Shown: in pieces, positions 8,129 to 29,065 of the stretch
Position numbering within the stretch: position 1 is the first letter of the stretch
How the letters are laid out: the number at the start of each line of letters is the position of its first letter
Origin: an uncultured Gammaproteobacteria bacterium
GTDB taxonomy: Bacteria > Patescibacteriota > Microgenomatia > Levybacterales > GWA1-39-11
NCBI GenBank assembly: GCA_964450885.1
Contig: CAYVFE010000001.1
Coordinates: forward strand, 246,572-310,571
Length of the DNA stretch: 64,000 nt
Direction of reading: 5' to 3'
Made by a program: the position numbers and the translations under genes
The notes under the pieces: model-generated
The model's input: only the letters and a program-made list of their open reading frames with translations
The model's database searches: none
What the model was told of the DNA's origin: nothing

Positions 8129-9313
8129 ATGGCAAGAGTTAAGATATCAGAGTTCAGGGCAAAAAACATTCTATATAAATCACTAAATAGAGATTATTCA
8201 GGAATAGAAGTTGATTCGCAAAAGGATCTGGATCAGCAAGTTTCGAATCTAGATTCCAGCAAGAAATATGTTTTAAAAGTAGACCAAGGGGTAAAGCAGA
8301 GAAATAAAAAAGGGCTAGTTGTGCTTAATATAGGCAAGGAGAATGTAGTAGATAAAATAAAAGAATTATCCCAAAAAGGATATACGCAGTTTTTACTCGA
8401 AGAATTTTTAGAGCATGATAGTGACACCGAAAAATATCTTGCGATAGAAAGGATTCGTGAAGGAAAAAAAATATATTACTCGACTTCTGGAGGAGTTGAT
8501 ATAGAGGAAAATAAAGATAGAGTTAAAAGTCTCACGATAGAAAACTACGATCAGATAGGAGAAGTATCAAAAGAGCTAGGAATGAATATAGAGGTTTTTG
8601 ATGGGATACTAAATGTCTTTGATGATAATTATTTTTCCTTTCTCGAGATAAATCCATTAGTTGTTAAAGATGGAGATTGCTATTTTCTAGATGCTGCTGT
8701 GCAAGTTGATAGTGCTGCAGAGTTTTTTATAAATGGGGGATGGGGGGCTGACGACTTTCGTGAGAGTCTTTCACGCGATAAGACGAAGGAGGAAAGAGAG
8801 ATAGAAAGACTTAGAGAGAAAAGTCCTGCATCTTTTAGCTACGAAATACTAAATCCAAATGGGTCGATATTTCTACTCTTATCTGGAGGTGGAGCATCGC
8901 TCGTTACTGCTGACGAGATCTATCAGCAGGGAAAGGGAGAAGAGATGGCAAATTATGGAGAGTATAGTGGAAATCCAAACACTCAGGAGACTTATATTTA
9001 TACAAAAAATTTACTTGCTACTCTACTCCATTCTAATTCATCTAGAAAAGCCATAATAATTTCGGGAGGCGTTGCGAATTTTACCGATATAAGAAGTACA
9101 TTCAAAGGGCTTATAAGGGCTATGTCAGAGAGCGCGCAAAAACTGCGCGAAAACAAAGTTAAGGTTTTTGTTAGGCGGGGGGGGCCTTTTCAGGAAGAAG
9201 GACTCAGGATCATGGGGGAATTTTTAGAAAAAGAAGAACTATTAGGAGTAGTTAGTGGGCCTGATATGATCCTTACAGACATCGTAAAACCTGCAATCGA
9301 ATACGTATCTTAA
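8129..9313 (+). CDS. aclB: ATP-citrate lyase beta subunit (ATP-grasp, succinyl-CoA-synthetase-beta-like)
   Basis: 394 aa, matching the known AclB size. ATP-grasp SCS-beta-like motifs (KVDQGVKQRNKKGLV, INPLVV..DG....DAAVQVDSAA). Immediately followed, 1 nt later, by the aclA-like gene. Confidence 0.75.
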   Translation: MARVKISEFRAKNILYKSLNRDYSGIEVDSQKDLDQQVSNLDSSKKYVLKVDQGVKQRNKKGLVVLNIGKENVVDKIKELSQKGYTQFLLEEFLEHDSDTEKYLAIERIREGKKIYYSTSGGVDIEENKDRVKSLTIENYDQIGEVSKELGMNIEVFDGILNVFDDNYFSFLEINPLVVKDGDCYFLDAAVQVDSAAEFFINGGWGADDFRESLSRDKTKEEREIERLREKSPASFSYEILNPNGSIFLLLSGGGASLVTADEIYQQGKGEEMANYGEYSGNPNTQETYIYTKNLLATLLHSNSSRKAIIISGGVANFTDIRSTFKGLIRAMSESAQKLRENKVKVFVRRGGPFQEEGLRIMGEFLEKEELLGVVSGPDMILTDIVKPAIEYVS

Positions 9314-9314
9314 T

Positions 9315-11096
9315 ATGAATATCGAAAAGTTAAAAAATATAGAAGCAAAAATAATCGTTATCGGAAATCATCCTGCGATCATACAGTCTATTTTGGATTT
9401 TGATAATATTTCTGGCAAAAAATTCCCAAGCATCGTAGGAATAATTGCTACCGGCAGAAATTATCAAAGATTTTTTTATGGTAAAAAGGAAATCTTGATT
9501 CCGATTTTTAGTTCTGTAGAAAGGTTGCCAGGCAGTGTAAAAGAAAATGTAAATGTGTTTGTAAACGTTAGCTCCGGAAGAAGGGTTTTACAGTCATCGA
9601 TAGAGGCGATAGACAATCTACCGAATTTGGTTATCGGAACAATTTTTGCAGAAAACGTTCCCGAAAAACATGCGATAGATTTAGGCGAATTCGCGAAGAT
9701 AAAAAATATAGTTCTTATCGGTCCTGCTAGCGTGGGAATGGTTTTGCCGGAAGTATTTAAATTAGGTGCGATAGGAGGAGTAAATCTACCACAAATCGAA
9801 ACCTCGGGGATTTTAAATAAGGGTGGGATTGCAGTTCTTTCTGCATCTGGCGGGATGGTAAACGAAATAATAAATATAGTCGCTCAAAGTCATAACAGCA
9901 TCTCCTTTGCACTTTCATTTGGAGGCGATAGATTCCCATTGTTAGAACCTGTTGACGCCTTACTTGCTGCAGAACATGATGAACAAACCAAAGCTATAGT
10001 ATATTATGGAGAGCTTGGTGGTGAAGACGAATACAAGATCGCAGAACTTTTGAAATCCGGTGAGTTTTCTAAAAAGGTTATTTGTTATGTAGCTGGAAGC
10101 GTTTCGGATCTTTTTGACACTCCCCCACAATTCGGTCATGCGAAAGCTATGGCAGGGAGCAAAGAAGAAAGCGCAACAGCAAAAAGAAAAGCGCTTCGTG
10201 ATGCTGGGGCAGTCGTGCCGGATACTTTTTCGGAGTTTGTCGGAGCTATAAATTCGTTGGAAGACTATGGAAGTAGTAGAACTCATGATAAAATAGAAAA
10301 TATGGATGACAGACGCCACGCTCTTATCGCATCAACCATCTCAAAGGACGAAGATGGAGATGTTAAAGTTTTGGGAGAAGATTTGATAAGCTTTGCAAAG
10401 ACAAATTCGTTTGCAAAAATCGCCAGCTCCCTTTTTCTAGGGAAGAAAATAAGCTCAAGTGACACGGAAGAACTCGTCGATTTTATTCTAAAAGTAAGCG
10501 TTGATCATGGGCCATATGTTTCAGGTGCACTAAATACTATAGTGTCAGCTCGCGCTGGTAAAGACCTGGTTTCATCACTCTCATCAGGACTTCTTACCAT
10601 AGGCCCGAGATTCGGTGGAGCCTTGAATCAGGCTGCGGATAACTGGTTTGAAGGGGTACGTAGCGGGAAAGATGCGCACGATTTTGTTGAGGAATTTGCG
10701 CAAAAGAAAGAATATATCCAGGGAATCGGACATAAAAAATATAGGGTAGACATGCCCGACCCTAGAGTAGCAGAGTTAAAGCACTTCGTAGATAGACTCG
10801 ATAGTAAAAGATTCACAAATTTTGCTCTGGAGGTTGAAAAAATAACGACAGAAAAGAAAGGTAATCTTATTTTAAATGTCGATGGCATGATAGCGGCTGT
10901 GCTTCTGGATTATCTGTCAGAGAAAGAAGGATATAGCGATGACGAGTTAAGAAAATTGATCGATGCAGAATTTTTTAATGCACTATTTGTTCTCTCTAGA
11001 AGCGTGGGATTTATCGCACATTTTCTGGACCAAAAGAGGCTTGATGAAGGACTTCTTCGACTAAGCGAGGAAGATGTGGCTGATGCAAATATATAA
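9315..11096 (+). CDS. aclA: ATP-citrate lyase alpha subunit (CoA-binding + phospho-His ligase + citryl-CoA lyase domain)
   Basis: 593 aa. SCS-alpha-like phosphohistidine segment QFGHAKAMAG. C-terminal citrate-synthase-like domain with GIGHKKYRVDMPDPR and ALEVEKITTEKKGNLILNVDG...GFIAHFLDQKRL, which closely matches the eukaryotic/Chlorobium ACL C-terminus. Confidence 0.8.
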   Translation: MNIEKLKNIEAKIIVIGNHPAIIQSILDFDNISGKKFPSIVGIIATGRNYQRFFYGKKEILIPIFSSVERLPGSVKENVNVFVNVSSGRRVLQSSIEAIDNLPNLVIGTIFAENVPEKHAIDLGEFAKIKNIVLIGPASVGMVLPEVFKLGAIGGVNLPQIETSGILNKGGIAVLSASGGMVNEIINIVAQSHNSISFALSFGGDRFPLLEPVDALLAAEHDEQTKAIVYYGELGGEDEYKIAELLKSGEFSKKVICYVAGSVSDLFDTPPQFGHAKAMAGSKEESATAKRKALRDAGAVVPDTFSEFVGAINSLEDYGSSRTHDKIENMDDRRHALIASTISKDEDGDVKVLGEDLISFAKTNSFAKIASSLFLGKKISSSDTEELVDFILKVSVDHGPYVSGALNTIVSARAGKDLVSSLSSGLLTIGPRFGGALNQAADNWFEGVRSGKDAHDFVEEFAQKKEYIQGIGHKKYRVDMPDPRVAELKHFVDRLDSKRFTNFALEVEKITTEKKGNLILNVDGMIAAVLLDYLSEKEGYSDDELRKLIDAEFFNALFVLSRSVGFIAHFLDQKRLDEGLLRLSEEDVADANI

Positions 11097-18110: not shown

Positions 18111-18322
18111 CGATATTAATAAAAGCGATACTTAGCGCTATCTTGAATTGCAAGTATAAGCCGCGGTTTTCCGCCGCGAAAGATAAGTATCCGCAACCCA
18201 GAAGGGTTTTTCCGTTCAGCGGGATTGCTCAAAACCTAACGCCGGGTGTAAAGGAAGGTTCATGTTACCCTCTCAAATCTACGAGAGGATTTTGTACCCC
18301 ACTTACAAGGCTAAAAAGTATT
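18111..18322 (+). ncRNA. Structured 5' leader / candidate cis-regulatory RNA (riboswitch-like) upstream of the secreted cell-wall-hydrolase-like gene
   Basis: About 210 nt of non-coding sequence containing nested hairpins. These are CGCGG-uuuu-CCGCG; AUCCGC enclosing AACCC-agaa-GGGUU-UUUUU and CCG-uuca-GCGG, closed by GCGGAU; and CCUCUC-aaaucuac-GAGAGG. The ORF-track 'N-terminus' here (MNCKYKPRF...) is not protein-like. Confidence 0.4.
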
Positions 18323-19072
18323 ATGGAAAACGAACAAGCTTCGCGAAATTATCGTGGAGAAATAAAACAATTCGTAAAGAACAAGGGGCAAGTAATTGCG
18401 TCTGGAGGGATCCTTGCAGGACTTAGCATTTTCGGTATGTGTGAGGCGTCAAATGCAGATAATTCCAGTGATGATGAGTATCAGGATTTTAGTTCTACGC
18501 AGCTTGTTGAGGAATCATTTGCCCAGGCTGAAAGTTATCAAAGTTTTGTAGATAGGATTATGGAAGAGTCAAAAGAAAATGTAGACCAGATGGAACAGGA
18601 AATGCAAACAGATGAAGAATTCGACCTTGAGACTCCTACCCCAACTGCTACAAGTACGCCAACTCCGACGATGACTCCTACGCTGACACCCACTCCTATT
18701 CCTCCAACTCCAACTCCTGAGCCATATATTCCGACTCCTACCCCAACGCCTGATGTTTCTCCTCAATCACAATCTTCTTCGAATGTGCCTTCTAACTGCC
18801 CAGAATTGATTGCAGATACTTTCGGTTGGAGTGGTTGTGCGATATCATACTGTGAGAGCGGATGGGATCAGAATGAAACAGGTGATGCTGGAGAACGCGG
18901 GTGGTTTCAAATCCACCCTATCCATAGCGATTCAACTTACGATCCTGTAGGAAATGTCGCAGCAGCAAATAGAATAAGCAATGGAGGAACAGATTGGGGT
19001 GCGTGGTCTGTTAGGGGAGTTCTTAGTAATGGTGGATTTTGTCCGAATGGTGAAGCTGTACCATCTCGATAA
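18323..19072 (+). CDS. Secreted transglycosylase-like (Rpf/SLT-like lysozyme fold) protein with Thr/Pro linker
   Basis: Start at MENEQ, followed by a TM/signal segment (IASGGILAGLSIFGMC), a TPTPTATSTPTPTMTPTLTPTPIPPTPTPEPYIPTPTPTP linker, and a C-terminal CESGWDQNETGDAGERGWFQIHPIH segment. That segment resembles the catalytic-Glu / G-[LF]-FQ transglycosylase-like motif. Confidence 0.5.
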   Translation: MENEQASRNYRGEIKQFVKNKGQVIASGGILAGLSIFGMCEASNADNSSDDEYQDFSSTQLVEESFAQAESYQSFVDRIMEESKENVDQMEQEMQTDEEFDLETPTPTATSTPTPTMTPTLTPTPIPPTPTPEPYIPTPTPTPDVSPQSQSSSNVPSNCPELIADTFGWSGCAISYCESGWDQNETGDAGERGWFQIHPIHSDSTYDPVGNVAAANRISNGGTDWGAWSVRGVLSNGGFCPNGEAVPSR

Positions 19073-19094: not shown

Positions 19095-19700
19095 TTATTC
19101 TGCGCCGATTATTATCACAGCGTCTTCATCGCCATCGTAGTTGGTTGAGGTATCACCGATGGTGTATTCATCCGAAAGATCGCTTTCCAACAATTCGAGT
19201 AGGGCATTATTTCCGTTTGCTACAGAAATTTCTGTCTCCGTGTAGTCAAAATTGTCTGCATTTTCAGTTCCTCCAACGGTGTAGCCTAAATCACCTAGTA
19301 TGTCAGAAAGCCTTCCTGCAGCCCCTGCTGTACCGCTTCCGTTTTGGATAAGTATTGTATATTCTGAGCGATCTATATCAGAATCGCTGTCATCCTCATC
19401 TGTATCAGCATCCTCCTCTGATGCTGAGTCTTCATCTTCTGGTGTTGGCGCAGGGGTATCCGTAGGGGACTGTGTTATCGCGGGTGTTGCAAATATGTCC
19501 TCTTCTTCAGGTTCTTCATCTGAAGAGAATGCGGAGATTGCGACTATAAGAACAATTATTATTATGAGGATTCCTCCGATTATCGCGAAGAGTTTTTTCT
19601 TATTTTTTCTTCCTCCTTGAGATTCATACACATAAGATCTTCTGGAGTGTGCTTGCGGCTGTTGTTCGTCTTCCATAGTCCTTACCTTGCTCAACACCAT
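19095..19700 (-). CDS. Membrane protein with C-terminal LytR_C-like domain
   Basis: A single TM helix (LFAIIGGILIIIIVLIVAI), an acidic low-complexity linker, and C-terminal TILIQNGSGTAGAAGRLSDILGDLGYTV, typical of the LytR_C domain. Confidence 0.5.
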   Translation of the reverse strand: MVLSKVRTMEDEQQPQAHSRRSYVYESQGGRKNKKKLFAIIGGILIIIIVLIVAISAFSSDEEPEEEDIFATPAITQSPTDTPAPTPEDEDSASEEDADTDEDDSDSDIDRSEYTILIQNGSGTAGAAGRLSDILGDLGYTVGGTENADNFDYTETEISVANGNNALLELLESDLSDEYTIGDTSTNYDGDEDAVIIIGAE

Positions 19701-19778
19701 AATACCACTTTTTTCATTAAATTCAAGTTAAATTGAATATTTATAATAGAATTTAATAGCAAATAGTATAATATTTAA

Positions 19779-20834
19779 ATGAAAAAGTTACTGATCATAA
19801 TTATTATTCTCGTTTGCTTCGGGATATGGTTTTCTCAGAGGGAGAATATTAGTCTAGAGAAAGATATGCTCAATCCCGTTGAAGGTAAAAAGCTTCTAAA
19901 TCAACAAGAGGAAAAATTCATTTTTGTACCCTATTGGACATTCTCGGATGAGCTTGATGTGAATGAATATGGTAGCCTCATATATTTTGGAGTATCTATT
20001 GATGAAAATGGCATCGATAAAAATGAGGAGGGATATAGGAAAATGGATTCTTTTGTGCGTTTTGCCCCAAGTGATAAGAAAAAATACCTTACATTGCGGC
20101 TAGTTAATAGCGAAATAAATGAAAAAATAATCGAGGACGACACCTTTCAAAGAAAGGTTGCATCCCAACTAGCTGATCTTGCAAATAGTCATGAGTTTGA
20201 TGGCGTGGTGATAGATTATGAGACGTCAGCATTCGGATTTGAATCAGTAGAAAATGAGATTACTGATATGTATAAAGTATTTAACTCAGAAGTTAAAAGG
20301 AAGGATTTGGAGCTGCTGGTTACTGTGTTTGGAGATACATATTATAGAGCTCGTCCATATAATATCGGAGAAATAGGCAAGCTTTCTGATGGGGTAATTG
20401 TTATGGCATACGACTTTCATAAGGCGAGACTAAATCCGGGACCGACCTTTTCTTTATCTGATGATGATAAATACGGCTATAGCCTTTTAAGCATGGTAGA
20501 TGATTTTAGTGAGGATGTTCCGGGTGAAAAAATAATTATAACTTTAGGATATTTTGGATATGATTGGAAGCTTTCTGATGACAGAACAAGTATGGGTATG
20601 GCTGAGCCGCTTACTACAAATCAATTTGAATCTAGATTTTTAGCTGGATGCGATTTTGATAATTGTAGAATCAACAAAAATAATGATGGTGAGAGTAGCG
20701 TTTTGTATGAGGATGAGGAAGGGTATAATCATGAAGTTTGGTCTGAGGACATGGATTCTATCGATCGAAAGATCACCGCGCTAAATGATAAGGGTGTGAG
20801 GAGAATCGGTATCTGGGCATATTCATTCTACTAG
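19779..20834 (+). CDS. GH18-like (chitinase-fold) domain protein, probably catalytically degenerate; membrane-anchored
   Basis: N-terminal TM helix. FDGVVIDYE replaces the canonical GH18 DGxDxDWE motif (the middle Asp is Val). A YDF...NPGP block follows. Confidence 0.45.
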   Translation: MKKLLIIIIILVCFGIWFSQRENISLEKDMLNPVEGKKLLNQQEEKFIFVPYWTFSDELDVNEYGSLIYFGVSIDENGIDKNEEGYRKMDSFVRFAPSDKKKYLTLRLVNSEINEKIIEDDTFQRKVASQLADLANSHEFDGVVIDYETSAFGFESVENEITDMYKVFNSEVKRKDLELLVTVFGDTYYRARPYNIGEIGKLSDGVIVMAYDFHKARLNPGPTFSLSDDDKYGYSLLSMVDDFSEDVPGEKIIITLGYFGYDWKLSDDRTSMGMAEPLTTNQFESRFLAGCDFDNCRINKNNDGESSVLYEDEEGYNHEVWSEDMDSIDRKITALNDKGVRRIGIWAYSFY

Positions 20835-20879
20835 GGCTTGAAAACGAAACTATAAGGATGTAAACTCAGCTTCATAGTA

Positions 20880-23876
20880 ATGAAATTGCTTAAGGCTTTA
20901 TTACTGCTCACCCTGCTTTCTTTTTTTATGTCTGTAAAGACACCTGTCGAAGCGGTAGGTTTTGAAAGAACAGAAATTGTTTCCGGCCTAACTGCTGCAG
21001 TAAAGTTAATCCATTTACCTGATGGAAGAATGTTGGTTGCAGAGAAAGCTGGTAAAGTTAGGGTCATAAAAGATGGACAGCTTCTTTCGGCCCCCATGTT
21101 GGACATTTCGGATCATGTTAATAATTATGTAGACAGAGGGCTTCTTTCCATAGCAATAGACCCTGATTTTGAGGAAAATTTTTACTTATATCTTCTCTAT
21201 ACGCATCAGGGCACGAACGATCCTGCTGATAAGAATAAGACGAATAGATTAGTCAGAGTTCAGCTCCCATCAGCAACTGCAGACGAAGCTGTTCCTAGCA
21301 TTAATCCCCCAGAGGCTATAATTTTAGGGTCAGTAGATGACCCATTCTGTGGGCCCGGATTAGACTGCATGCCCATAAATAGCTATTCTCATGCTATTGG
21401 AGATATAGTTTTTGATGAAGAGGAAAATATATTTTTATCTGTTGGAGATGGTTCCGAATATGATTTTGTTGATCCGCAAGCTTTGCGTGCTCAAAATCCC
21501 GATTGGCTACTTGGCAAAGTTTTGCATATAAATAGAGAGGGAGAAGGTCTAGATTCAAACCCTTATTATAATGGTGATCCGGATGCGCCCAGGTCTAAGG
21601 TTTACCAGATGGGTCTTAGGAATCCATTTAGGCTTACCTTGCACCCTGATTTCGGATTGTTTACAACAGACGTTGGGTGGTATTTGTGGGAAGAGGTAAA
21701 TCATGGAGGAGTCGGAGCAAATTTTGGGTGGCCTTGCTTTGAGGGGAATGATCCTACCACAGAGTATAGTACAAATCCTCAGATATTGGATTTTTGTCAA
21801 GATATGTACGATAACCCTACAGACAAAAAACCTTTATATGAGTATAGTCATGAAGGGGGAGGGGGAGCAGCAATCGGAGGAGCGTTTTATGATGGTACGG
21901 AATATCCTGAGGAATATCGTAATAATTTCTTTTTTGCAGACCATGATAAGAAATGGGTTAGAAGACTGAGCTTTACCTCTGAGGGAGAGTTCGAATCAGC
22001 TGAGAACTTTATGGCGGATGTTCAGGAGCCTGTTATGGTTTTTTCATATCCGGATAATGGCGATATAGGCTGGATTTCTATATGGTCCGGAAAAATTATC
22101 CGTGTGTCATATAATGAGAACAACAGGGCGCCGGTTGCAGTTGCTTCTTCTAATATAACTTCAGGGGCCGTGCCTTTGACTGTCGAATTTGACGGATCAT
22201 TATCTTCAGATCCAGATGAAGATGAGTTAACGTTTAATTGGGATTTTGGTGATGGCAGCAGTTCAGCAGAGGTGAATCCTGTTCATACATATAGTAGTCC
22301 GGGAACTATGAGTGTTACTTTAACGGTTTCAGATGGATTTAGTGAGGCTACGGATACTATTACTATTAATGTAGGAGATGAAGCGCCTGTAATTAGTATT
22401 ACTTCTCCAATCAAAGACACGAATTTTGTAGCTCCTGCAGCAATACAATATAGTGGAAGTGCGGTAGATACTTCAGGTAATCCTATTCCTGCAGAAAATG
22501 TAAGTTGGAAGTTGATAATTCATCACAATGATCACATCCACGTCGAATTTGATGGTGTTACTGGTTATGCTGGGTCAAAAACACTTCCATATCATGCAGA
22601 TAATTCATTTTATGAGCTAGAATTTACTGCCACTGATCCTAATAACGGCTTAACTTCTAAAAAAACTGTAAATTTTTACGTTCTTCCTGAAGGATCTGGC
22701 TCGGAAATTGTAATATATGCGGCAGGGACGTTAGCTCATGATTCTTATCCAACGATGGAGTTATTAGTAGATGATGTTGTCGTTGCTAGTTATGAAAATG
22801 TTATGGGAGATCCTCAAGAGAGAATGTTTGAACAGTTTGCCTATAATCACACGTCTAATGTTAAGGCTGAGCAGATAAAGGTCAGATTTACGAATGATTT
22901 TTACAGTCAAGCTGAGGGACAAGATAGAAATCTCATGGTTGATAAAGTGATAGTTGACGGTATAACCTACGAAACCGAAGATCAGAATGTTTTCTCAGTA
23001 GGATCGTGGTCTGCAGATAACGACTGTGGTCCAGGCTATAAACGCAGTGAAGAGTTAGCATGTAACGGATACTTTTCTTATGCAGGAGGTAGCCTGATTG
23101 AGGTATTTGCTGCAGGTACTCCAGCTGGAGGAGTTTATCCAAATGCTCAACTTGTCATAAATAATGTGGTGGTTGCGACATCTAATAATATCCAAGGAGA
23201 TATCGAGAATAGAGATTTTGAAAGAATTGCATATAGATATCCCATAAAGCTTACCGAGAGTGATAAGATCCAAGTCAAATTTACAAATGACTTGAACGAA
23301 AATGGCGAAGACAGGAATTTAATAGTTGATAAAATTAGAGTTGATGGGATAGATTATGAGACAGAGAGTTCTAGTGTATTTTCTTTTGGCTCCTGGTCAG
23401 CAGCTAATAGTTGTGGGCCAGGGTACAAATTAAGTGAAACACTTGCCTGCAATGGATATTTTGAATATACATTCTCAAATCCACAAGGATCACAAATTGA
23501 CATCTATGCTGCTGGGACACCTGCAGTTGGTGTTTATCCAAACATCGAGCTTCTTATTGATGATGTGGTGGTAAAAACATTTTTTGGAGTAGGTTCTACC
23601 TTCGGTCCAGGGTTCTTTGAGACGCTGAAATATACTCATAGAGATACGGTTTTACCTTCACAAATAAAGGTACGTTTCATAAATGACTATTACGATGCGT
23701 TAACTGGAGATAATAGGGATGCATTTATTGATAGGATAAGCATTGATGGAGTTGATTATCAAAGCGAAGACCCATCAGTTTATTCGGAAGGTTCCTGGTC
23801 AGTAGGTAATGGTTGTGGTGGAGGATATAAAGCTTCTGAAATGCTTTCTTGCAATAATTCCTACTTTCAATACTAG
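20880..23876 (+). CDS. Large secreted/surface protein: SGDH-type (glucose/sorbosone dehydrogenase-like) beta-propeller + PKD domain + three tandem ~135-aa carbohydrate-binding-like repeats
   Basis: Signal peptide MKLLKALLLLTLLSFFMSV. The propeller carries HAIGDIVFDEEENIFLSVGDGS, matching the H.GG..FGPDG..Y.S.GD pattern. The PKD block is TFNWDFGDGSS...HTYSSPGTMSVTLTVSDG. Three repeats each show YAAGT..YP...L..DVVV....IKVRFTNDxY...DRNL.VD.I.VDGI.YE.E..VFS.GSWS..N.CGPGYK.SE.LACNGYF.Y. Confidence 0.6.
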   Translation: MKLLKALLLLTLLSFFMSVKTPVEAVGFERTEIVSGLTAAVKLIHLPDGRMLVAEKAGKVRVIKDGQLLSAPMLDISDHVNNYVDRGLLSIAIDPDFEENFYLYLLYTHQGTNDPADKNKTNRLVRVQLPSATADEAVPSINPPEAIILGSVDDPFCGPGLDCMPINSYSHAIGDIVFDEEENIFLSVGDGSEYDFVDPQALRAQNPDWLLGKVLHINREGEGLDSNPYYNGDPDAPRSKVYQMGLRNPFRLTLHPDFGLFTTDVGWYLWEEVNHGGVGANFGWPCFEGNDPTTEYSTNPQILDFCQDMYDNPTDKKPLYEYSHEGGGGAAIGGAFYDGTEYPEEYRNNFFFADHDKKWVRRLSFTSEGEFESAENFMADVQEPVMVFSYPDNGDIGWISIWSGKIIRVSYNENNRAPVAVASSNITSGAVPLTVEFDGSLSSDPDEDELTFNWDFGDGSSSAEVNPVHTYSSPGTMSVTLTVSDGFSEATDTITINVGDEAPVISITSPIKDTNFVAPAAIQYSGSAVDTSGNPIPAENVSWKLIIHHNDHIHVEFDGVTGYAGSKTLPYHADNSFYELEFTATDPNNGLTSKKTVNFYVLPEGSGSEIVIYAAGTLAHDSYPTMELLVDDVVVASYENVMGDPQERMFEQFAYNHTSNVKAEQIKVRFTNDFYSQAEGQDRNLMVDKVIVDGITYETEDQNVFSVGSWSADNDCGPGYKRSEELACNGYFSYAGGSLIEVFAAGTPAGGVYPNAQLVINNVVVATSNNIQGDIENRDFERIAYRYPIKLTESDKIQVKFTNDLNENGEDRNLIVDKIRVDGIDYETESSSVFSFGSWSAANSCGPGYKLSETLACNGYFEYTFSNPQGSQIDIYAAGTPAVGVYPNIELLIDDVVVKTFFGVGSTFGPGFFETLKYTHRDTVLPSQIKVRFINDYYDALTGDNRDAFIDRISIDGVDYQSEDPSVYSEGSWSVGNGCGGGYKASEMLSCNNSYFQY

Positions 23877-23889
23877 ATTTTTTCCACGA

Positions 23890-23967
23890 AAAAAGAGCGG
23901 AGGTGCTTTATCAGAAGAACTCTGACAAAGGTTTGATCCTGAATGGACCAAACTTCCGCTCTTTTCC
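23890..23967 (-). terminator. Compound rho-independent terminator for the minus-strand GT2-GH gene
   Basis: On the minus strand, AAAAGAGCGGA pairs with UCCGCUCUUUU around an inner GGUUUGAUCC/GGACCAAAC hairpin, followed by a U-run (plus-strand A-run at 23889-23894). Confidence 0.4.
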
Positions 23968-23984
23968 AGTTGTGCAGTTAGCTC

Positions 23985-26675
23985 TTAGCGTTCTTTTAGT
24001 TCGAAGTACGGATTGCTGATTCCGTTCATGAACGCTTCGAGTTTTACCCCCGTTAACCTCCAGTCGATTACGACGTTAGGCCGAGGGTGCTGCGCGTTGT
24101 AGTAGACGAGACTTACGAGCATCGGATAATTCTGCACCGACGCAAGCATTTTCGCTACCCAATCCGCTTCCAGCGGGAGATTCTCAAGTGAGACTCCCAC
24201 CTCAGGGATGATGATAGGTTTGCCATAGCTGGCAAACCCTGGGTACATCGACGCCATCAGTTCGTCGAAGCTCAGGTATCCACCCTTCTGCCACACGTAT
24301 GTGGCAAATACGGTGAATCCCACGAAGTCGACGTAGTCGTCGCCAGGGTAGTACACAGTGTAATTCGGGATGTAGCCCGCGGGGCTCCATAAGAAGCGTG
24401 CATTCGGAGCACTCTCCTTAATGATCCCGTACACGTGTCGCCAAGCTGGCGCATAAAGCTCCGGTTCGGTGTCCCATGGGAATGAGCCGTTAAGGTCCAT
24501 CTCGTGAGCAAACCGAATGATGATCGGAGATCCGCCGTCATACCTGCCGATCAGGTTACCCCACGCCCGGATGTAGTCGTCGTACTTGCCGTCGACAATA
24601 TCCTGCAGGGAAACTCCCTCAGATCCATCTGGCGACCAGATCCATGGTTCCCATGTGATCAGGGAGATCTGGTTCTGCTCTGCTGCCGTCAGTATCTGCG
24701 TGTCGAGGTAGTCCATGGTGTCCGGATTCCAGTCTGCAAAGACCATGTTGATCTTGCTGATGGAGGACAGGGCTTGATCCGGATCCCAGGCTCCTATCGC
24801 CACTCCAGAAAATTCCTGTTCGACGAATCTCGCAGAAACTGTAGGAAGTGGTGTCGGTGTTGGGGTCGGAGTAGGCGTTGGGGTAGGCGTTGCCCTTGGT
24901 GGCGTTCTGGTAGGGACAGGAGTTGAAGTATTGGCATCGATTTGAGAGGGCGTTGCTGCCCGCTGCAGATCTGGTGCCTCAGTTATAACTACCATTCCCC
25001 CATCTGAGAAAGTGCGGGCTATCGGCGACGATTGAGGTTGTATTAGTGCGATTGCTGTAGCTGATGATGCGATAGCAACAGCAGCAACCCCAAAGTACGC
25101 GGCTTTTCGTCGATACGCCACCAGCGTTGGACGAGACCGAAGCAGGTGCTTCTGGGAGCTTATGACCACCGCAAGTTGTGTCGCGATGGTAAAGGCCGCC
25201 CAGAAACGGAGCTGCGGCGCCTCACCGTTGCCGGTCATGAAGCTCGCTGCGATTCCGCTCAGGGACAGGATGATGAGAAATCCATGCATGCGGAATGCAG
25301 CAAGGGAGTCTTTTTGCACCTGTGTACCTTTTGCGGTGACGACGTACTGGAGCTTCCGATAGAAGGCGACCAGAAGGAAGGCCCTGAAGTATATTGGAAG
25401 TGCTCCTAGCGTAAGGAACATCCCTTTCAGTCCAAGTCCCTTCTCTCGCTCCGGGTCGAGGTAGAACCTCTGACACCATCGCTCGATAAGCACCGAGATT
25501 AGGAAGGGTGGCATCGCATGGTAGGCCCACTGCCAGATGTCCATAGCTCCCGCCGACACTCCGAAGAGTAGGTAGAGAGAGGTGAGGATGACAGAGAGTG
25601 CCATGGTGACGCCTGCTAGGTAGTACGTCTGGACGAAGAAATACCCCAGTCGTCTCTTCCAGTTGAACTTGAGAAGGAGACGGGGAGAGTCGTCACGTAC
25701 GATCTCGAAAATCCCGTAGGACCAACGAGTTTGTTGGTTAAGGTATTCTTCCCATGAGGAAGGGCCTTCTCCGATTGCGATGATCTCTGGGACGTAGATT
25801 CCTTTCCAGCCTTTGGATAGCATCCTCATGCCGGTCAGGTGGTCTTCGACGATCTTTGATGCATATCCACCCGCGTCTTGCAGAGCGGATGGACGATAGA
25901 CGTGATTGGTGCCGATGAAAAGCGGCATCCCGAGACCATTGAGTCCCTGTTGGAGGGGACCATGGAAGCAGAATGACTGCTCGGCTGCACCACGTGCGAT
26001 CCAGTTTTCCTGGTTGCCGTAGATCTGAGGACCGACAACGAATCCCACCTGGCGATCCCGAAAGTACCCGAGGGTCCTATCGAGATAATCCTTGGTGGGC
26101 ACGTGGTCCATGTCCATCTGAGCTACGAAGTCGTAGGCATCTTCGTATGCATCGCGCCATGCGTTGTGGTTGCCCGCCTTGGTCTTGGCCTTGAACGGGC
26201 CCGATGGCTGGTTGTATCGTCCTATCCCCTTTCGGGAAAAGTGACGAACACCCAGTCTTTGGCACATGTCCTTGACGATGACGTCATCTCCCTCGTCGAG
26301 AACCCACGTGTCGTGAGGATAGTCAACTTCCGTCATGGCTTTGAGCGTTACCTCTAGCATGTCGTAAGGTTCTTTTCCCGGAACGAAGCACGTAAGCATC
26401 GCGACTCGGAGTCCTGGACGCGGTTTCTGGTAGGGTGTCCTTTTCATGTGGGACACGATGTACCAGAAGCCCAGGCGTTGCACGAGACCGTGCCAGATAA
26501 CGCCTGTGAGGGCAAGGTAGAAGACGATGTCGAGCCAGTCGAATCCTCCCTGTCCCCAGTTCGATGGGATGTGGTTGGGATTAAACCACCAAACCGCATA
26601 GCGGATGATGGCAAAGATGGCCAGCGTCACCACGAGGGTGAAGAAGACCTTCTCTTTCCGGGACATCACGTTCAT
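23985..26675 (-). CDS. Fusion protein: membrane-embedded processive family-2 glycosyltransferase (cellulose-synthase/BcsA-like) - Pro/Thr linker - C-terminal GH26-like (clan GH-A) glycoside hydrolase domain
   Basis: 896 aa. GT2 motifs LDEGDD, KAGNHN (cf. BcsA KAGNLN), AQMDMDH, VEDHLTGMRM (TED-like) and QQTRW, plus multiple TM helices. Linker TPVPTRTPPRATPTPTPTPTPTPTPLPT. The C-terminal hydrolase domain carries IIIRFAHEMDL, an R-x-x-H-E acid/base motif of GH26 type. The gene is visibly GC-rich relative to its flanks. Confidence 0.7.
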   Translation of the reverse strand: MNVMSRKEKVFFTLVVTLAIFAIIRYAVWWFNPNHIPSNWGQGGFDWLDIVFYLALTGVIWHGLVQRLGFWYIVSHMKRTPYQKPRPGLRVAMLTCFVPGKEPYDMLEVTLKAMTEVDYPHDTWVLDEGDDVIVKDMCQRLGVRHFSRKGIGRYNQPSGPFKAKTKAGNHNAWRDAYEDAYDFVAQMDMDHVPTKDYLDRTLGYFRDRQVGFVVGPQIYGNQENWIARGAAEQSFCFHGPLQQGLNGLGMPLFIGTNHVYRPSALQDAGGYASKIVEDHLTGMRMLSKGWKGIYVPEIIAIGEGPSSWEEYLNQQTRWSYGIFEIVRDDSPRLLLKFNWKRRLGYFFVQTYYLAGVTMALSVILTSLYLLFGVSAGAMDIWQWAYHAMPPFLISVLIERWCQRFYLDPEREKGLGLKGMFLTLGALPIYFRAFLLVAFYRKLQYVVTAKGTQVQKDSLAAFRMHGFLIILSLSGIAASFMTGNGEAPQLRFWAAFTIATQLAVVISSQKHLLRSRPTLVAYRRKAAYFGVAAVAIASSATAIALIQPQSSPIARTFSDGGMVVITEAPDLQRAATPSQIDANTSTPVPTRTPPRATPTPTPTPTPTPTPLPTVSARFVEQEFSGVAIGAWDPDQALSSISKINMVFADWNPDTMDYLDTQILTAAEQNQISLITWEPWIWSPDGSEGVSLQDIVDGKYDDYIRAWGNLIGRYDGGSPIIIRFAHEMDLNGSFPWDTEPELYAPAWRHVYGIIKESAPNARFLWSPAGYIPNYTVYYPGDDYVDFVGFTVFATYVWQKGGYLSFDELMASMYPGFASYGKPIIIPEVGVSLENLPLEADWVAKMLASVQNYPMLVSLVYYNAQHPRPNVVIDWRLTGVKLEAFMNGISNPYFELKER

Positions 26676-27193: not shown

Positions 27194-28408
27194 TCATATT
27201 TTGGAAAAGAATGGGATTGAGAATTTTACTTTTTTAATTACTTTTCGGGTTTCAAAAAGAGATGTTCCGAAAATTATTTTTCTATCGTCATATAGTAGAT
27301 AAATTTTCTTCGCTTTTTCTTTGAGATTTTCATCTTCGAAAAATAGTGAGGACTGATGCATTCTATCCTCCTCGAAGTTATAGATAGTTGCTCCTGTTGC
27401 GCGGTAAAGATTACTCGGGTCATAAATCTTCTCAAATCCCTGCCGTATTTGTCTTCGGATCATAATCGGATAAGACGTCTTATCATTTATCCTTATCTCG
27501 ATTCCCTGGTAGGTAAACTTTTGTGTCTTTAGATATATAAAAATTCTGCCTACACTGTAGTTATACTTTCGAGCTTTCAAAAAAGCACTCTCTACATGAT
27601 GAAGAATTCTTGCCCAGAGCACGCTTTTTTCGTTTGTCGCAGGGGTAACTGTGTGGGATTTGGTTATAGATTTATATTCTCTTTTTACGCTTGGATCAAC
27701 CTTAAAAAGAGATGTGCCATTTAACTCGAGCCAGATTTCATAAAAAGGTTTTGGATAGAATTTTTTAATAAAATTTTCTGGACGGATAGCATAGTCATAT
27801 GCTGTGTTGATGTTAAACCTTCTTAATTTTGGTGCGCTCCTGTATCCTATTCCCCAGACCTTTGAGATATCTATCTGTTTTAAAAGTTCGACCGTTTTTT
27901 CTTTAGGAATTATAGTAAGTCCAGAGGGCTTGTTGAGATTTGCGGCAATTTTTGCAAGAGATTTAGTAGTCGCGATCCCGATAGAAACAGTTATCCCTAA
28001 TGAGTTTTCTATTTCATCTTTCATAGCCCGACCGATTTCGTAATACGACATCTTTAGAGGTCTTGTGAGTCCTTTCAGGTCTGCAAACCCTTCATCTATA
28101 GAATAGATTTCGACAGCGGGCGAGTATTTTTTCATGATGGAAAACATTTTGTTTGAGAATAGGTGATAGAGCTTGTAGTCGGAATGCGTGATTATGACTG
28201 TTGGAAATTGTTTTTTTATTTCCCAGCATGGCATGCCTCTTTCTACGCCTAGTGCTTTTGCTTCATAGGACACTGCTGTCGCAATCCCTCGCTCCATGCC
28301 GCTTACGACAGGTTTTCCCTGAAGGTGAGGATTTACTGCCTGGGTTACTGATGCAAAAAATGCATCTGCATCGAGATGTAGGATTGCTTCAGGCCATGAG
28401 GTGGACAT
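27194..28408 (-). CDS. dinB: Y-family DNA polymerase IV
   Basis: ILHLDADAFFASV catalytic motif at the N-terminus. 404 aa. Lies downstream of lexA on the same strand. Confidence 0.85.
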   Translation of the reverse strand: MSTSWPEAILHLDADAFFASVTQAVNPHLQGKPVVSGMERGIATAVSYEAKALGVERGMPCWEIKKQFPTVIITHSDYKLYHLFSNKMFSIMKKYSPAVEIYSIDEGFADLKGLTRPLKMSYYEIGRAMKDEIENSLGITVSIGIATTKSLAKIAANLNKPSGLTIIPKEKTVELLKQIDISKVWGIGYRSAPKLRRFNINTAYDYAIRPENFIKKFYPKPFYEIWLELNGTSLFKVDPSVKREYKSITKSHTVTPATNEKSVLWARILHHVESAFLKARKYNYSVGRIFIYLKTQKFTYQGIEIRINDKTSYPIMIRRQIRQGFEKIYDPSNLYRATGATIYNFEEDRMHQSSLFFEDENLKEKAKKIYLLYDDRKIIFGTSLFETRKVIKKVKFSIPFFSKI

Positions 28409-28471
28409 AATACATTTTGAAAAATCTTTTTAATAAATTCAGTATTTTTTTACTTCTCTTTCTGATCATAG

Positions 28472-29032
28472 TCAATATTTGCGCATCACACTTTTTACGA
28501 TCCCAAAAACTTTAAGCTCCTCTACAGGGATAAATTCAGGGTAGTTAGGATTCGCGGCACGCAGGATACTTATCCCATTTTTGCGGTCCAGAATCTTTAG
28601 TGTCCATTCGTTATCTATGAGTGCGAGGACTATGTCTCCTGCTTTTGCCTGCGCGGTCTTTTCTATGACTACCATGTCTCCGTCAAATATTCCCACGCCT
28701 TCCATAGAGTCACCAGAGACTTTTAGCAGAAATGAACTGTTAGGTTTGTCGATAAGGTATTCGTCAAGTGAGAGAAAATTTAGCTCCTCCTCAGCGCCTG
28801 TCGGAAATCCTGCTTTGATATTCCCCAGAATCGGCACCTGAAAAAAAAAGTTGGTCGGGGAGAGTTTGTTATTTAGCTTTTGTAGATAGTTTTGTTCTAT
28901 AAGGTTATTTACGATTTTGTGAATCGCATTCTTTGAAGAAAGATTAAATATCGAAAGCATTTCAGAATAGGAAGGTATACGTTTGTTCTTCTTATAAAAT
29001 GATCGAAGTGATTCGAGATATTCAGATTTCAT
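28472..29032 (-). CDS. lexA: LexA repressor (S24 peptidase with N-terminal wHTH)
   Basis: C-terminal S24 autoprotease (GDSMEGVGIFDGDMVVI ... Lys). Start re-set to MKSEYLESL because the upstream ATG at 29065 lies inside the operator palindrome. Confidence 0.8.
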   Translation of the reverse strand: MKSEYLESLRSFYKKNKRIPSYSEMLSIFNLSSKNAIHKIVNNLIEQNYLQKLNNKLSPTNFFFQVPILGNIKAGFPTGAEEELNFLSLDEYLIDKPNSSFLLKVSGDSMEGVGIFDGDMVVIEKTAQAKAGDIVLALIDNEWTLKILDRKNGISILRAANPNYPEFIPVEELKVFGIVKSVMRKY

Positions 29033-29049
29033 ACCGCCAGAATAATATA

Positions 29050-29065
29050 GTGAACAATCGTTCAC
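29050..29065 (+). promoter_or_regulatory. LexA operator (Cheo/SOS box, GAAC-N4-GTTC)
   Basis: Perfect palindrome GTGAACAATCGTTCAC about 18 nt upstream of the corrected lexA start. Confidence 0.6.

Follow-up and report, generated by a model that had tools for sequence, protein, structure and literature searches.

What might a candidate-phyla-radiation (CPR) bacterium do, outside its cell, with a protein that joins a sugar-dehydrogenase-type propeller to a string of carbohydrate-binding modules? The question is raised by a gene on contig CAYVFE010000001.1 (assembly GCA_964450885.1), within a stretch of 64,000 nucleotides that we refer to as the window. An open reading frame (ORF) of 998 codons with an ATG start lies at 20880..23876 on the + strand, with exactly the coordinates and strand given in an earlier reading of the DNA that used no database searches (the sequence-only reading) and took the product for a surface protein and candidate adhesin or host-glycan-binding factor. 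The product is a modular secreted protein made up of a six-bladed beta-propeller, two immunoglobulin (Ig)-like spacers and three carbohydrate-binding modules (CBMs) of family CBM60. A secreted, CBM-targeted enzyme-like protein is a better reading of it than a surface adhesin.

Modules of the protein

The G+C content of the gene (~39%) is the same as that of the window. The exact protein is present in a public protein collection, on a contig of 588,172 bp, where it carries no name and forms a singleton cluster at 90% identity; exact matches to the DNA of the gene were looked for in the GTDB species representatives, and there were none. All of its parts belong to known families; for the Ig-like domain at 499-603 no specific Pfam or PDB relative was found. 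The features, with residue numbers (aa), are as follows.

20880..20954, + strand: signal peptide, aa 1-25, with predicted cleavage after VEA (a feature-based call)
20955..22124, + strand: GSDH-family six-bladed beta-propeller, aa 26-415 (Pfam PF07995, PDB sequence matches)
22125..22373, + strand: PKD domain, aa 416-498 (Pfam PKD_4 and PKD)
22374..22688, + strand: Ig-like seven-strand beta-sandwich, aa 499-603 (AlphaFold2 model)
22701..23090, + strand: CBM60 module 1, aa 608-737, Cys716-Cys728 (Pfam CBM60, AlphaFold2 and Foldseek)
23091..23489, + strand: CBM60 module 2, aa 738-870, Cys845-Cys857 (Pfam CBM60)
23490..23876, + strand: CBM60 module 3 and stop codon, aa 871-998, Cys979-Cys991 (Pfam CBM60)

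Wherever it could be checked, the domain assignment of the sequence-only reading held up, but it overlooked the Ig-like domain, a stretch of 105 residues that separates PKD from the first repeat. Neither of the outcomes that it had named as counting against it (repeats from a family that does not bind carbohydrate, or a propeller lacking catalytic residues together with no signal peptide) was seen: the repeats match CBM60, and both the catalytic His motif and signal-peptide features are present. The ten cysteines of the protein all form within-domain pairs. Acidic residues greatly outnumber basic ones (146 D+E vs 60 K+R), a strongly acidic composition that would be in keeping with that of many Ca2+-binding extracellular proteins.

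The repeats, described earlier as carbohydrate-binding-like, are true members of CBM60, one of the three families that had been suggested for them. Pfam PF16841 (CBM60) matches three stretches of the protein (1e-50 overall), and each repeat alone exceeds the gathering score of 28.2 bits, with 76.6 (2.1e-21), 55.2 (1.1e-14) and 61.9 bits (8.6e-17), scores that are far beyond chance. The Pfam model spans only the first ~97 residues of each repeat; the rest (GSWS...C...C.NGYF.Y) aligns with the C-terminal part of vCBM60, the module of a Cellvibrio japonicus xylanase on which the CAZy family was founded (2XFD and 2XHH), including both of its cysteines. A profile of 19 such modules aligns to residues 4-110 of the 112 in the 2XFD chain (E=1.3e-18). 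The AlphaFold2 (AF2) model of repeat 1 has a predicted local distance difference test score (pLDDT) of 94.6, and a Foldseek search of the PDB with this model returned only vCBM60 at E<1e-3, namely 2XFD (with cellobiose; E=1.6e-8, template modelling score (TM) 0.73/0.86, root-mean-square deviation 2.3 Å) and 2XHH.

The repeats therefore resemble vCBM60 in end-to-end alignment, in predicted fold and in the aligned Cys pair, of which each repeat has one, and both have FTND, R(D/N)..VD, G.W and SE.L.CNGY segments. Nevertheless, identity to vCBM60 is only 26-27%, and the repeats are longer (~130 vs ~110 aa), the additional residues being found within the N-terminal half and in the loop that follows FTND. 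Whereas the founding vCBM60 is a single module in a xylanase, the modules here are a C-terminal tandem triplet on a non-glycosidase of a CPR bacterium. N672 (of FTND) and D688 (of VD) are invariant across the 19 modules and are both present in vCBM60, and the acidic or amide positions common to the repeats and vCBM60 are conserved; as far as alignment can tell, this invariance fits a conserved metal site. In CBM60, adjacent equatorial hydroxyls of the sugar coordinate a protein-bound Ca2+ (PMC4444583, Fig. 1c, structure 2XFD), and beta-1,4-glucan and xylan are recognised but mannan is not (PMC4725902). Among themselves the repeats are 54.7% (1 vs 2), 48.8% (3 vs 1) and 45.6% (3 vs 2) identical at the protein level, in agreement with the earlier estimate of roughly half, and 53-60% identical at the DNA level, indicating that they are old duplicates and not a recent expansion.

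Two further domains separate the propeller from the repeats. The PKD domain, already recognised in the sequence-only reading, is matched above threshold by both PKD_4 (PF18911; residues 415-498, 8.1e-21, 74.3 bits vs 27) and PKD (PF00801; 1.1e-14, 54.6 bits vs 23.5), and has PDB matches to the PKD domains of the collagenases ColG and ColH. Residues 499-603 gave no Pfam match above threshold and are modelled by AF2 as a seven-strand sandwich (pLDDT 96.3). Foldseek found only weak generic Ig/FN3-type matches for this domain (the best being 9KVU, the CelAly B1 domain, with E=9e-3 and TM 0.64), and in 13 of 21 family members it weakly touches Pfam Big_7. It always follows a propeller and a PKD domain in this family. 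Across the 21 homologues W543, H549, H552 and H554 are invariant, and H548 and H572 nearly so. In the AF2 model H548-H549 close one strand and H552 and H554 open the next, so that H549, H552 and H554 should share one side of the hairpin; on this predicted geometry, the His cluster looks like a putative metal site.

Export is predicted from the N-terminus, MKLLKALLLLTLLSFFMSVKTPVEA followed by VG (continuing VGFERTE), which has the features of a Sec-type signal peptide: the n-region contains two Lys, the hydrophobic core is 14 residues long, and positions -3 to -1 read V-E-A. These features, with the V-x-A pattern at -3/-1, bear out the earlier call, and the segment is the sole 19-residue window in the whole protein with a Kyte-Doolittle hydropathy above 1.6. 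A search of the protein for anchors found neither an LPxTG-like motif nor a Pfam domain of the wall-binding kind, and no hydrophobic segment besides the signal peptide. A lipobox is excluded, as the first Cys of the protein is residue 157, and the chain terminates with the last residue of the third CBM60, with no anchor beyond it. With neither a membrane nor a wall anchor encoded, the description as a surface protein or adhesin is unsupported, and we set aside a surface-anchored adhesin on the same ground; as encoded, the protein is released unless its CBMs hold it on a glycan. The further suggestion of host-glycan binding by an episymbiont was an inference only, and nothing in our analysis shows episymbiosis for this lineage.

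The propeller, its clade and its fusion partners

The propeller was assigned to the right type before: it matches PF07995 (GSDH) over residues ~27-384 (E=4e-39, 135.3 bits vs a cut-off of 25), and the motif quoted in that reading, HAIGDIVFDEEENIFLSVGDGS, begins at residue 171 and aligns with the catalytic-His segment of Escherichia coli Asd (2G8S). PDB sequence matches comprise Thermus 2ISM, E. coli Asd 2G8S, the Acinetobacter soluble glucose dehydrogenase (sGDH) 1C9U, Pyrobaculum 3A9G, 7CDY and 3DAS, with structures of the Hedgehog-interacting protein (HHIP) as weaker matches. Asd (also YliI) and sGDH belong to the same Pfam family, and nearly the whole Asd chain is covered by the family profile (residues 9-88 and 128-350 of 353). 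The propeller has in common with both enzymes the catalytic His (H171), the Arg-Asn pair (R247/N248) and the DEIN-like (EEVN) and GxNYGWP-like (GANFGWP) motifs. By alignment to characterised enzymes, H171 is the general-base His and R247/N248 the Arg-Asn pair; in sGDH the general base is His144, and Arg228/Asn229 correspond to Arg430/Asn431 of CcPDH, which contact the quinone oxygens of pyrroloquinoline quinone (PQQ) (PMC6881789).

A homologue search recovered 2,631 proteins at E<=1e-10, and the clade has a signature of its own (DRGLL / SH..G / GLRNPFR / DVGW..WEEVN / GANFGWPC) together with two conserved Cys pairs (157/163 and 286/306). These two disulfides are extra relative to Asd and sGDH, as are the PKD and His-cluster Ig domains that always follow. 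In a 36-sequence family alignment H171, R247, N248, R251, V265, G266, E271, E272, N281 and W284 are invariant, as are C157, C163, C286 and C306. Judging by motif position, R86 (the Arg of DRGLL) might match Arg273 of the AA12 type. From the residues retained, redox activity of the propeller is plausible.

Relatives of the N-terminal part are proteins with a PKD domain from myxobacteria (e.g. Archangium and Corallococcus), Acidobacteria and metagenomes, to which NCBI gives the name 'PQQ-dependent sugar dehydrogenase' and which are 38-50% identical over the first ~600 aa; for those of myxobacteria, Acidobacteria and others the range is 38-43%. These homologues, themselves uncharacterised, have the same propeller-PKD-Ig(His cluster) order and the same invariant residues, but their tails are PA14, LamG or other domains and not three CBM60 modules. 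Other clade members likewise carry PA14, LamG and other glycan-binding modules in their C-terminal tails. The full propeller-PKD-Ig-CBM60x3 architecture is absent from the 120 best homologues, among which the best non-self match covers 61% of the query. The module order is thus unique so far among the proteins listed, whereas the type of protein is already known.

Propellers of this clade have nevertheless been joined to CBM60 elsewhere. Of the same 120 homologues, 13 have two to four N-terminal CBM60 modules, usually with Calx-beta, and a C-terminal propeller that carries GLRNPFR / DVGW..WEEIN / GANFGWP. At least two orders of combining propeller and CBM60 arrays therefore exist, and this speaks for a functional link. 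The fusion pattern of the clade, whose propellers occur with PA14, LamG and CBM60 tails across thousands of proteins, points to a CBM-targeted enzyme-like module instead of a pure adhesin. A search with the tail only (aa 608-998) found 65 proteins, the nearest named ones from Patescibacteria and Roizmanbacteria. In almost all of these, CBM60 forms the very C-terminus and a signal peptide or membrane anchor the N-terminus, and its partners are cohesin, PA14, GH26, GH6, lyase-like or beta-lactamase-like domains, or none; some tail homologues of ~330 aa consist of just an anchor and two CBM60 modules. CBM60 seems to be a general targeting module in secreted proteins of the Patescibacteria type.

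A working model and its alternatives

Our working model is grounded in the architecture, the family membership of the modules, the fold of two of them, the secretion features, the lack of an anchor and the recurrent fusion of propeller and CBM60. With moderate confidence, we propose that the product is an acidic modular protein, stabilised by disulfides, which leaves the cell by the Sec route and acts on polysaccharide outside it, tethered by CBM60 and with a propeller that is probably an oxidoreductase. The protein would be exported via Sec and fold with five disulfides. Each CBM60 may present a Ca2+ to which a beta-linked sugar binds through two neighbouring equatorial hydroxyls (O2/O3), and three modules in tandem would confer avidity for a polymer, which might be xylan, beta-glucan/cellulose or beta-galactan. 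A stalk formed by the PKD and Ig-like domains would space the propeller from the polymer. The propeller would be the working head, most likely an aldose or glycan reducing-end oxidoreductase acting on sugars or chain ends. Its cofactor might be PQQ scavenged from neighbours together with a metal, as in soluble glucose/aldose dehydrogenases and fungal AA12. Six-bladed PQQ-type propellers are encoded by CPR genomes that lack PQQ synthesis genes (bioRxiv 10.64898/2026.07.10.737718).

The same logic, in which CBMs tether a secreted six-bladed propeller of the dehydrogenase type to polysaccharide, is found in Teredinibacter turnerae TERTU_2567, a secreted protein with CBM5, CBM10, GSDH and cytochrome c (PMC12055684), and in Coprinopsis cinerea CcPDH, with AA8, AA12 and CBM1 (PMC6881789). 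Unlike these two, the protein studied here has no cytochrome or other recognised electron-transfer domain, and its CBM family differs.

Several observations weigh against the proposed oxidoreductase. In the cofactor pocket the propeller departs from Asd and sGDH. In sGDH, Lys377 and Arg408 bind the PQQ carboxylates (PMC6881789). The metal loop H/Q-G-P of these enzymes is replaced by V265-G266-W267 in both the protein and the clade consensus (aligned to 2G8S, 7CDY and 1C9U), and the position of Lys377 is occupied by D356 in both (aligned to Asd 2G8S only). The Arg-x-Arg of sGDH (R406/R408), in which Arg406 presumably binds a carboxylate as well, becomes E383/V385 in the protein and the clade (in the Asd 2G8S alignment). 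With the canonical metal loop and the carboxylate-binding Lys and Arg-x-Arg replaced, the aligned residues do not support PQQ binding; by the same alignments, the enzyme reading keeps the core residues but not the cofactor-binding periphery. The literature search found no characterised member of the propeller clade, and a scan of the neighbouring genes found no evident electron acceptor or lytic polysaccharide monooxygenase. Nor does the propeller offer the hallmarks of the AA12-like lanthanide group, defined by NERD...D or NGRD...D after the Arg-Asn pair and by similarity to CcPDH or TrAA12: the NERD...D motif is absent at that point, where the region reads TDVGWYLWEEVN.

Propellers of this AA12-like lanthanide type have been reported in 247 CPR genomes (bioRxiv 10.64898/2026.07.10.737718). 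As no AA12 structure was among the PDB sequence matches at E<=1e-3 and the motif is absent, we reject membership of that type, and both points also distinguish the protein from CcPDH.

The altered pocket might instead mean that the propeller has lost its cofactor and binds protein or glycan as the HHIP propeller does, making the protein a non-catalytic adhesin or lectin that bridges the CPR cell to a host cell or to polysaccharide of a matrix via its CBM60 array. The missing Lys/Arg-x-Arg and metal loop would suit such a role, as would the presence of HHIP structures among the PDB sequence matches and the finding that CPR bacteria make no PQQ (bioRxiv 10.64898/2026.07.10.737718). Many small Patescibacteria-type proteins with a related C-terminal CBM60 contain, apart from it, just a membrane anchor at the N-terminus; lacking a catalytic domain, they resemble plain surface lectins. 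However, the catalytic His, the Arg-Asn pair and the polar residues E271, E272 and N281 are invariant across distant lineages, as expected of an active site and not of a scaffold. Moreover, the protein has no anchor to the cell that produces it and so cannot by itself bridge two cells, which argues against a simple cell-to-cell adhesin. We therefore regard this explanation as possible but rather unlikely.

Another possibility would be that the DVGW..WEE(I/V)N clade does not consist of canonical PQQ enzymes and is an uncharacterised extracellular carbohydrate-active family in which cofactor or metal are arranged differently. The clade is marked by an additional invariant Arg in GLRNPFR and by the lack of a Lys and Arg-x-Arg for the PQQ carboxylates. 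The three-His cluster of the Ig-like domain (H549, H552 and H554) would then serve as a metal or electron-relay site, in the role of the cytochrome domain of fungal AA12, and CPR bacteria, unable to make PQQ, would have in such a protein a self-sufficient means of altering the glycans of a host or of the environment. We consider this improbable.

Alternatively, the CBM60 array might bind a beta-linked exopolysaccharide of the producing cell itself, synthesised by the neighbouring GT2-GH26 protein, and so retain the propeller on the cell surface as SLH or LysM domains do elsewhere. This GT2(cellulose-synthase-like)-GH26 gene lies immediately next to the ORF in convergent orientation, and Levybacteria, Daviesbacteria and Saccharibacteria commonly have homologues of it. 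In organisms of this kind, many secreted proteins with nothing else in common end in CBM60, as one would expect of a generic retention module. Yet the gene sits in a sharply bounded G+C island (54-56% vs 37-40%) and is probably a recent arrival and not a co-evolved partner, GH26 is mainly a mannanase family whereas CBM60 is reported not to bind mannan (PMC4725902), and many related CBM60 proteins are already membrane-anchored at the N-terminus, which would make a wall anchor needless. We give self-anchoring little credence, and the secreted, CBM60-tethered oxidoreductase-like protein is the reading that we carry forward.

Genomic setting and significance

The neighbours of the 998-aa gene are envelope and glycan genes, encoding a GH18-like protein, a LytR_C protein, a weakly lysozyme-like protein, an ABC exporter and, convergently, the GT2-GH26 fusion. 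The nearest of them are as follows.

18143-19072, + strand, and 19095-19700, - strand: pair of genes for envelope-type proteins with long low-complexity linkers, Pro/Thr-rich in one and acidic in the other
19779-20834, + strand: GH18-like gene with an N-terminal hydrophobic segment, ending 45 bp upstream of the 998-aa ORF
23985-26675, - strand: GT2 (cellulose-synthase-like)-GH26-like fusion gene, the single gene in the G+C island

The 45-bp gap and the common strand make co-transcription with the GH18-like gene a possibility; a scan of 19600-24100 for promoters and terminators gave counts no higher than in shuffled sequence. The GH18-like catalytic motif, DGVVIDYE, retains the Glu and the Asp next to it but has Val for the middle Asp of DxxDxDxE. 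Of the pair at 18143-19072 (+) and 19095-19700 (-), one protein has the Pro/Thr-rich linker and a weak lysozyme-like (SLT_3) C-terminus and the other the acidic linker and LytR_C.

The edges of the G+C island are sharp, at ~23.9 and ~27.0 kb. The best public homologue of the GT2-GH26 protein shares only 55% identity with it, and the protein collection lacks the exact protein although it contains the product of the neighbouring gene. The island is likely to have come recently, by horizontal transfer, from a lineage of high G+C, or else to be an assembly chimera. Adjoining it, at 27194-29065 (-), is a Y-family DNA polymerase (IMS) gene beside one for an S24 LexA/UmuD-like peptidase. Elsewhere in the window, neighbouring genes on the + strand (8129-11096) correspond to the two halves of ATP-citrate lyase, the first with Citrate_bind/ATP-grasp and the second with CoA-ligase/citrate-synthase domains, which is unexpected in a small CPR genome.

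The CPR origin assumed in the sequence-only reading is supported by the SecY encoded in the window, which shares 88% identity with its counterpart in a Candidatus Levyibacteriota metagenome-assembled genome (MAG), with other CPR groups as the more distant matches. Several third-party MAGs labelled 'uncultured Gammaproteobacteria' (loci L002-L005, L007 and L009) have SecY proteins 49-86% identical to that of the window and rank among the Levyibacteriota/CPR matches; their taxonomic labels look wrong.

At the practical level the analysis has the modest value of a clean annotation for an unannotated public protein. The features most worthy of note are the non-canonical cofactor pocket of the clade, the conserved His-cluster Ig domain and the widespread C-terminal CBM60. 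A large clade (the 2,631 homologues above) goes by the name 'PQQ-dependent sugar dehydrogenase' and yet is without several canonical PQQ-binding residues, and CBM60, studied so far in the xylanases of organisms that degrade plant cell walls, seems to serve widely for targeting at the C-terminus of secreted proteins of the Patescibacteria type. If the proposed function is true, a CPR bacterium exports a glycan-targeted oxidoreductase-like protein though it is unable to make the usual cofactor, which would add to recent evidence that CPR bacteria depend on their neighbours for PQQ.

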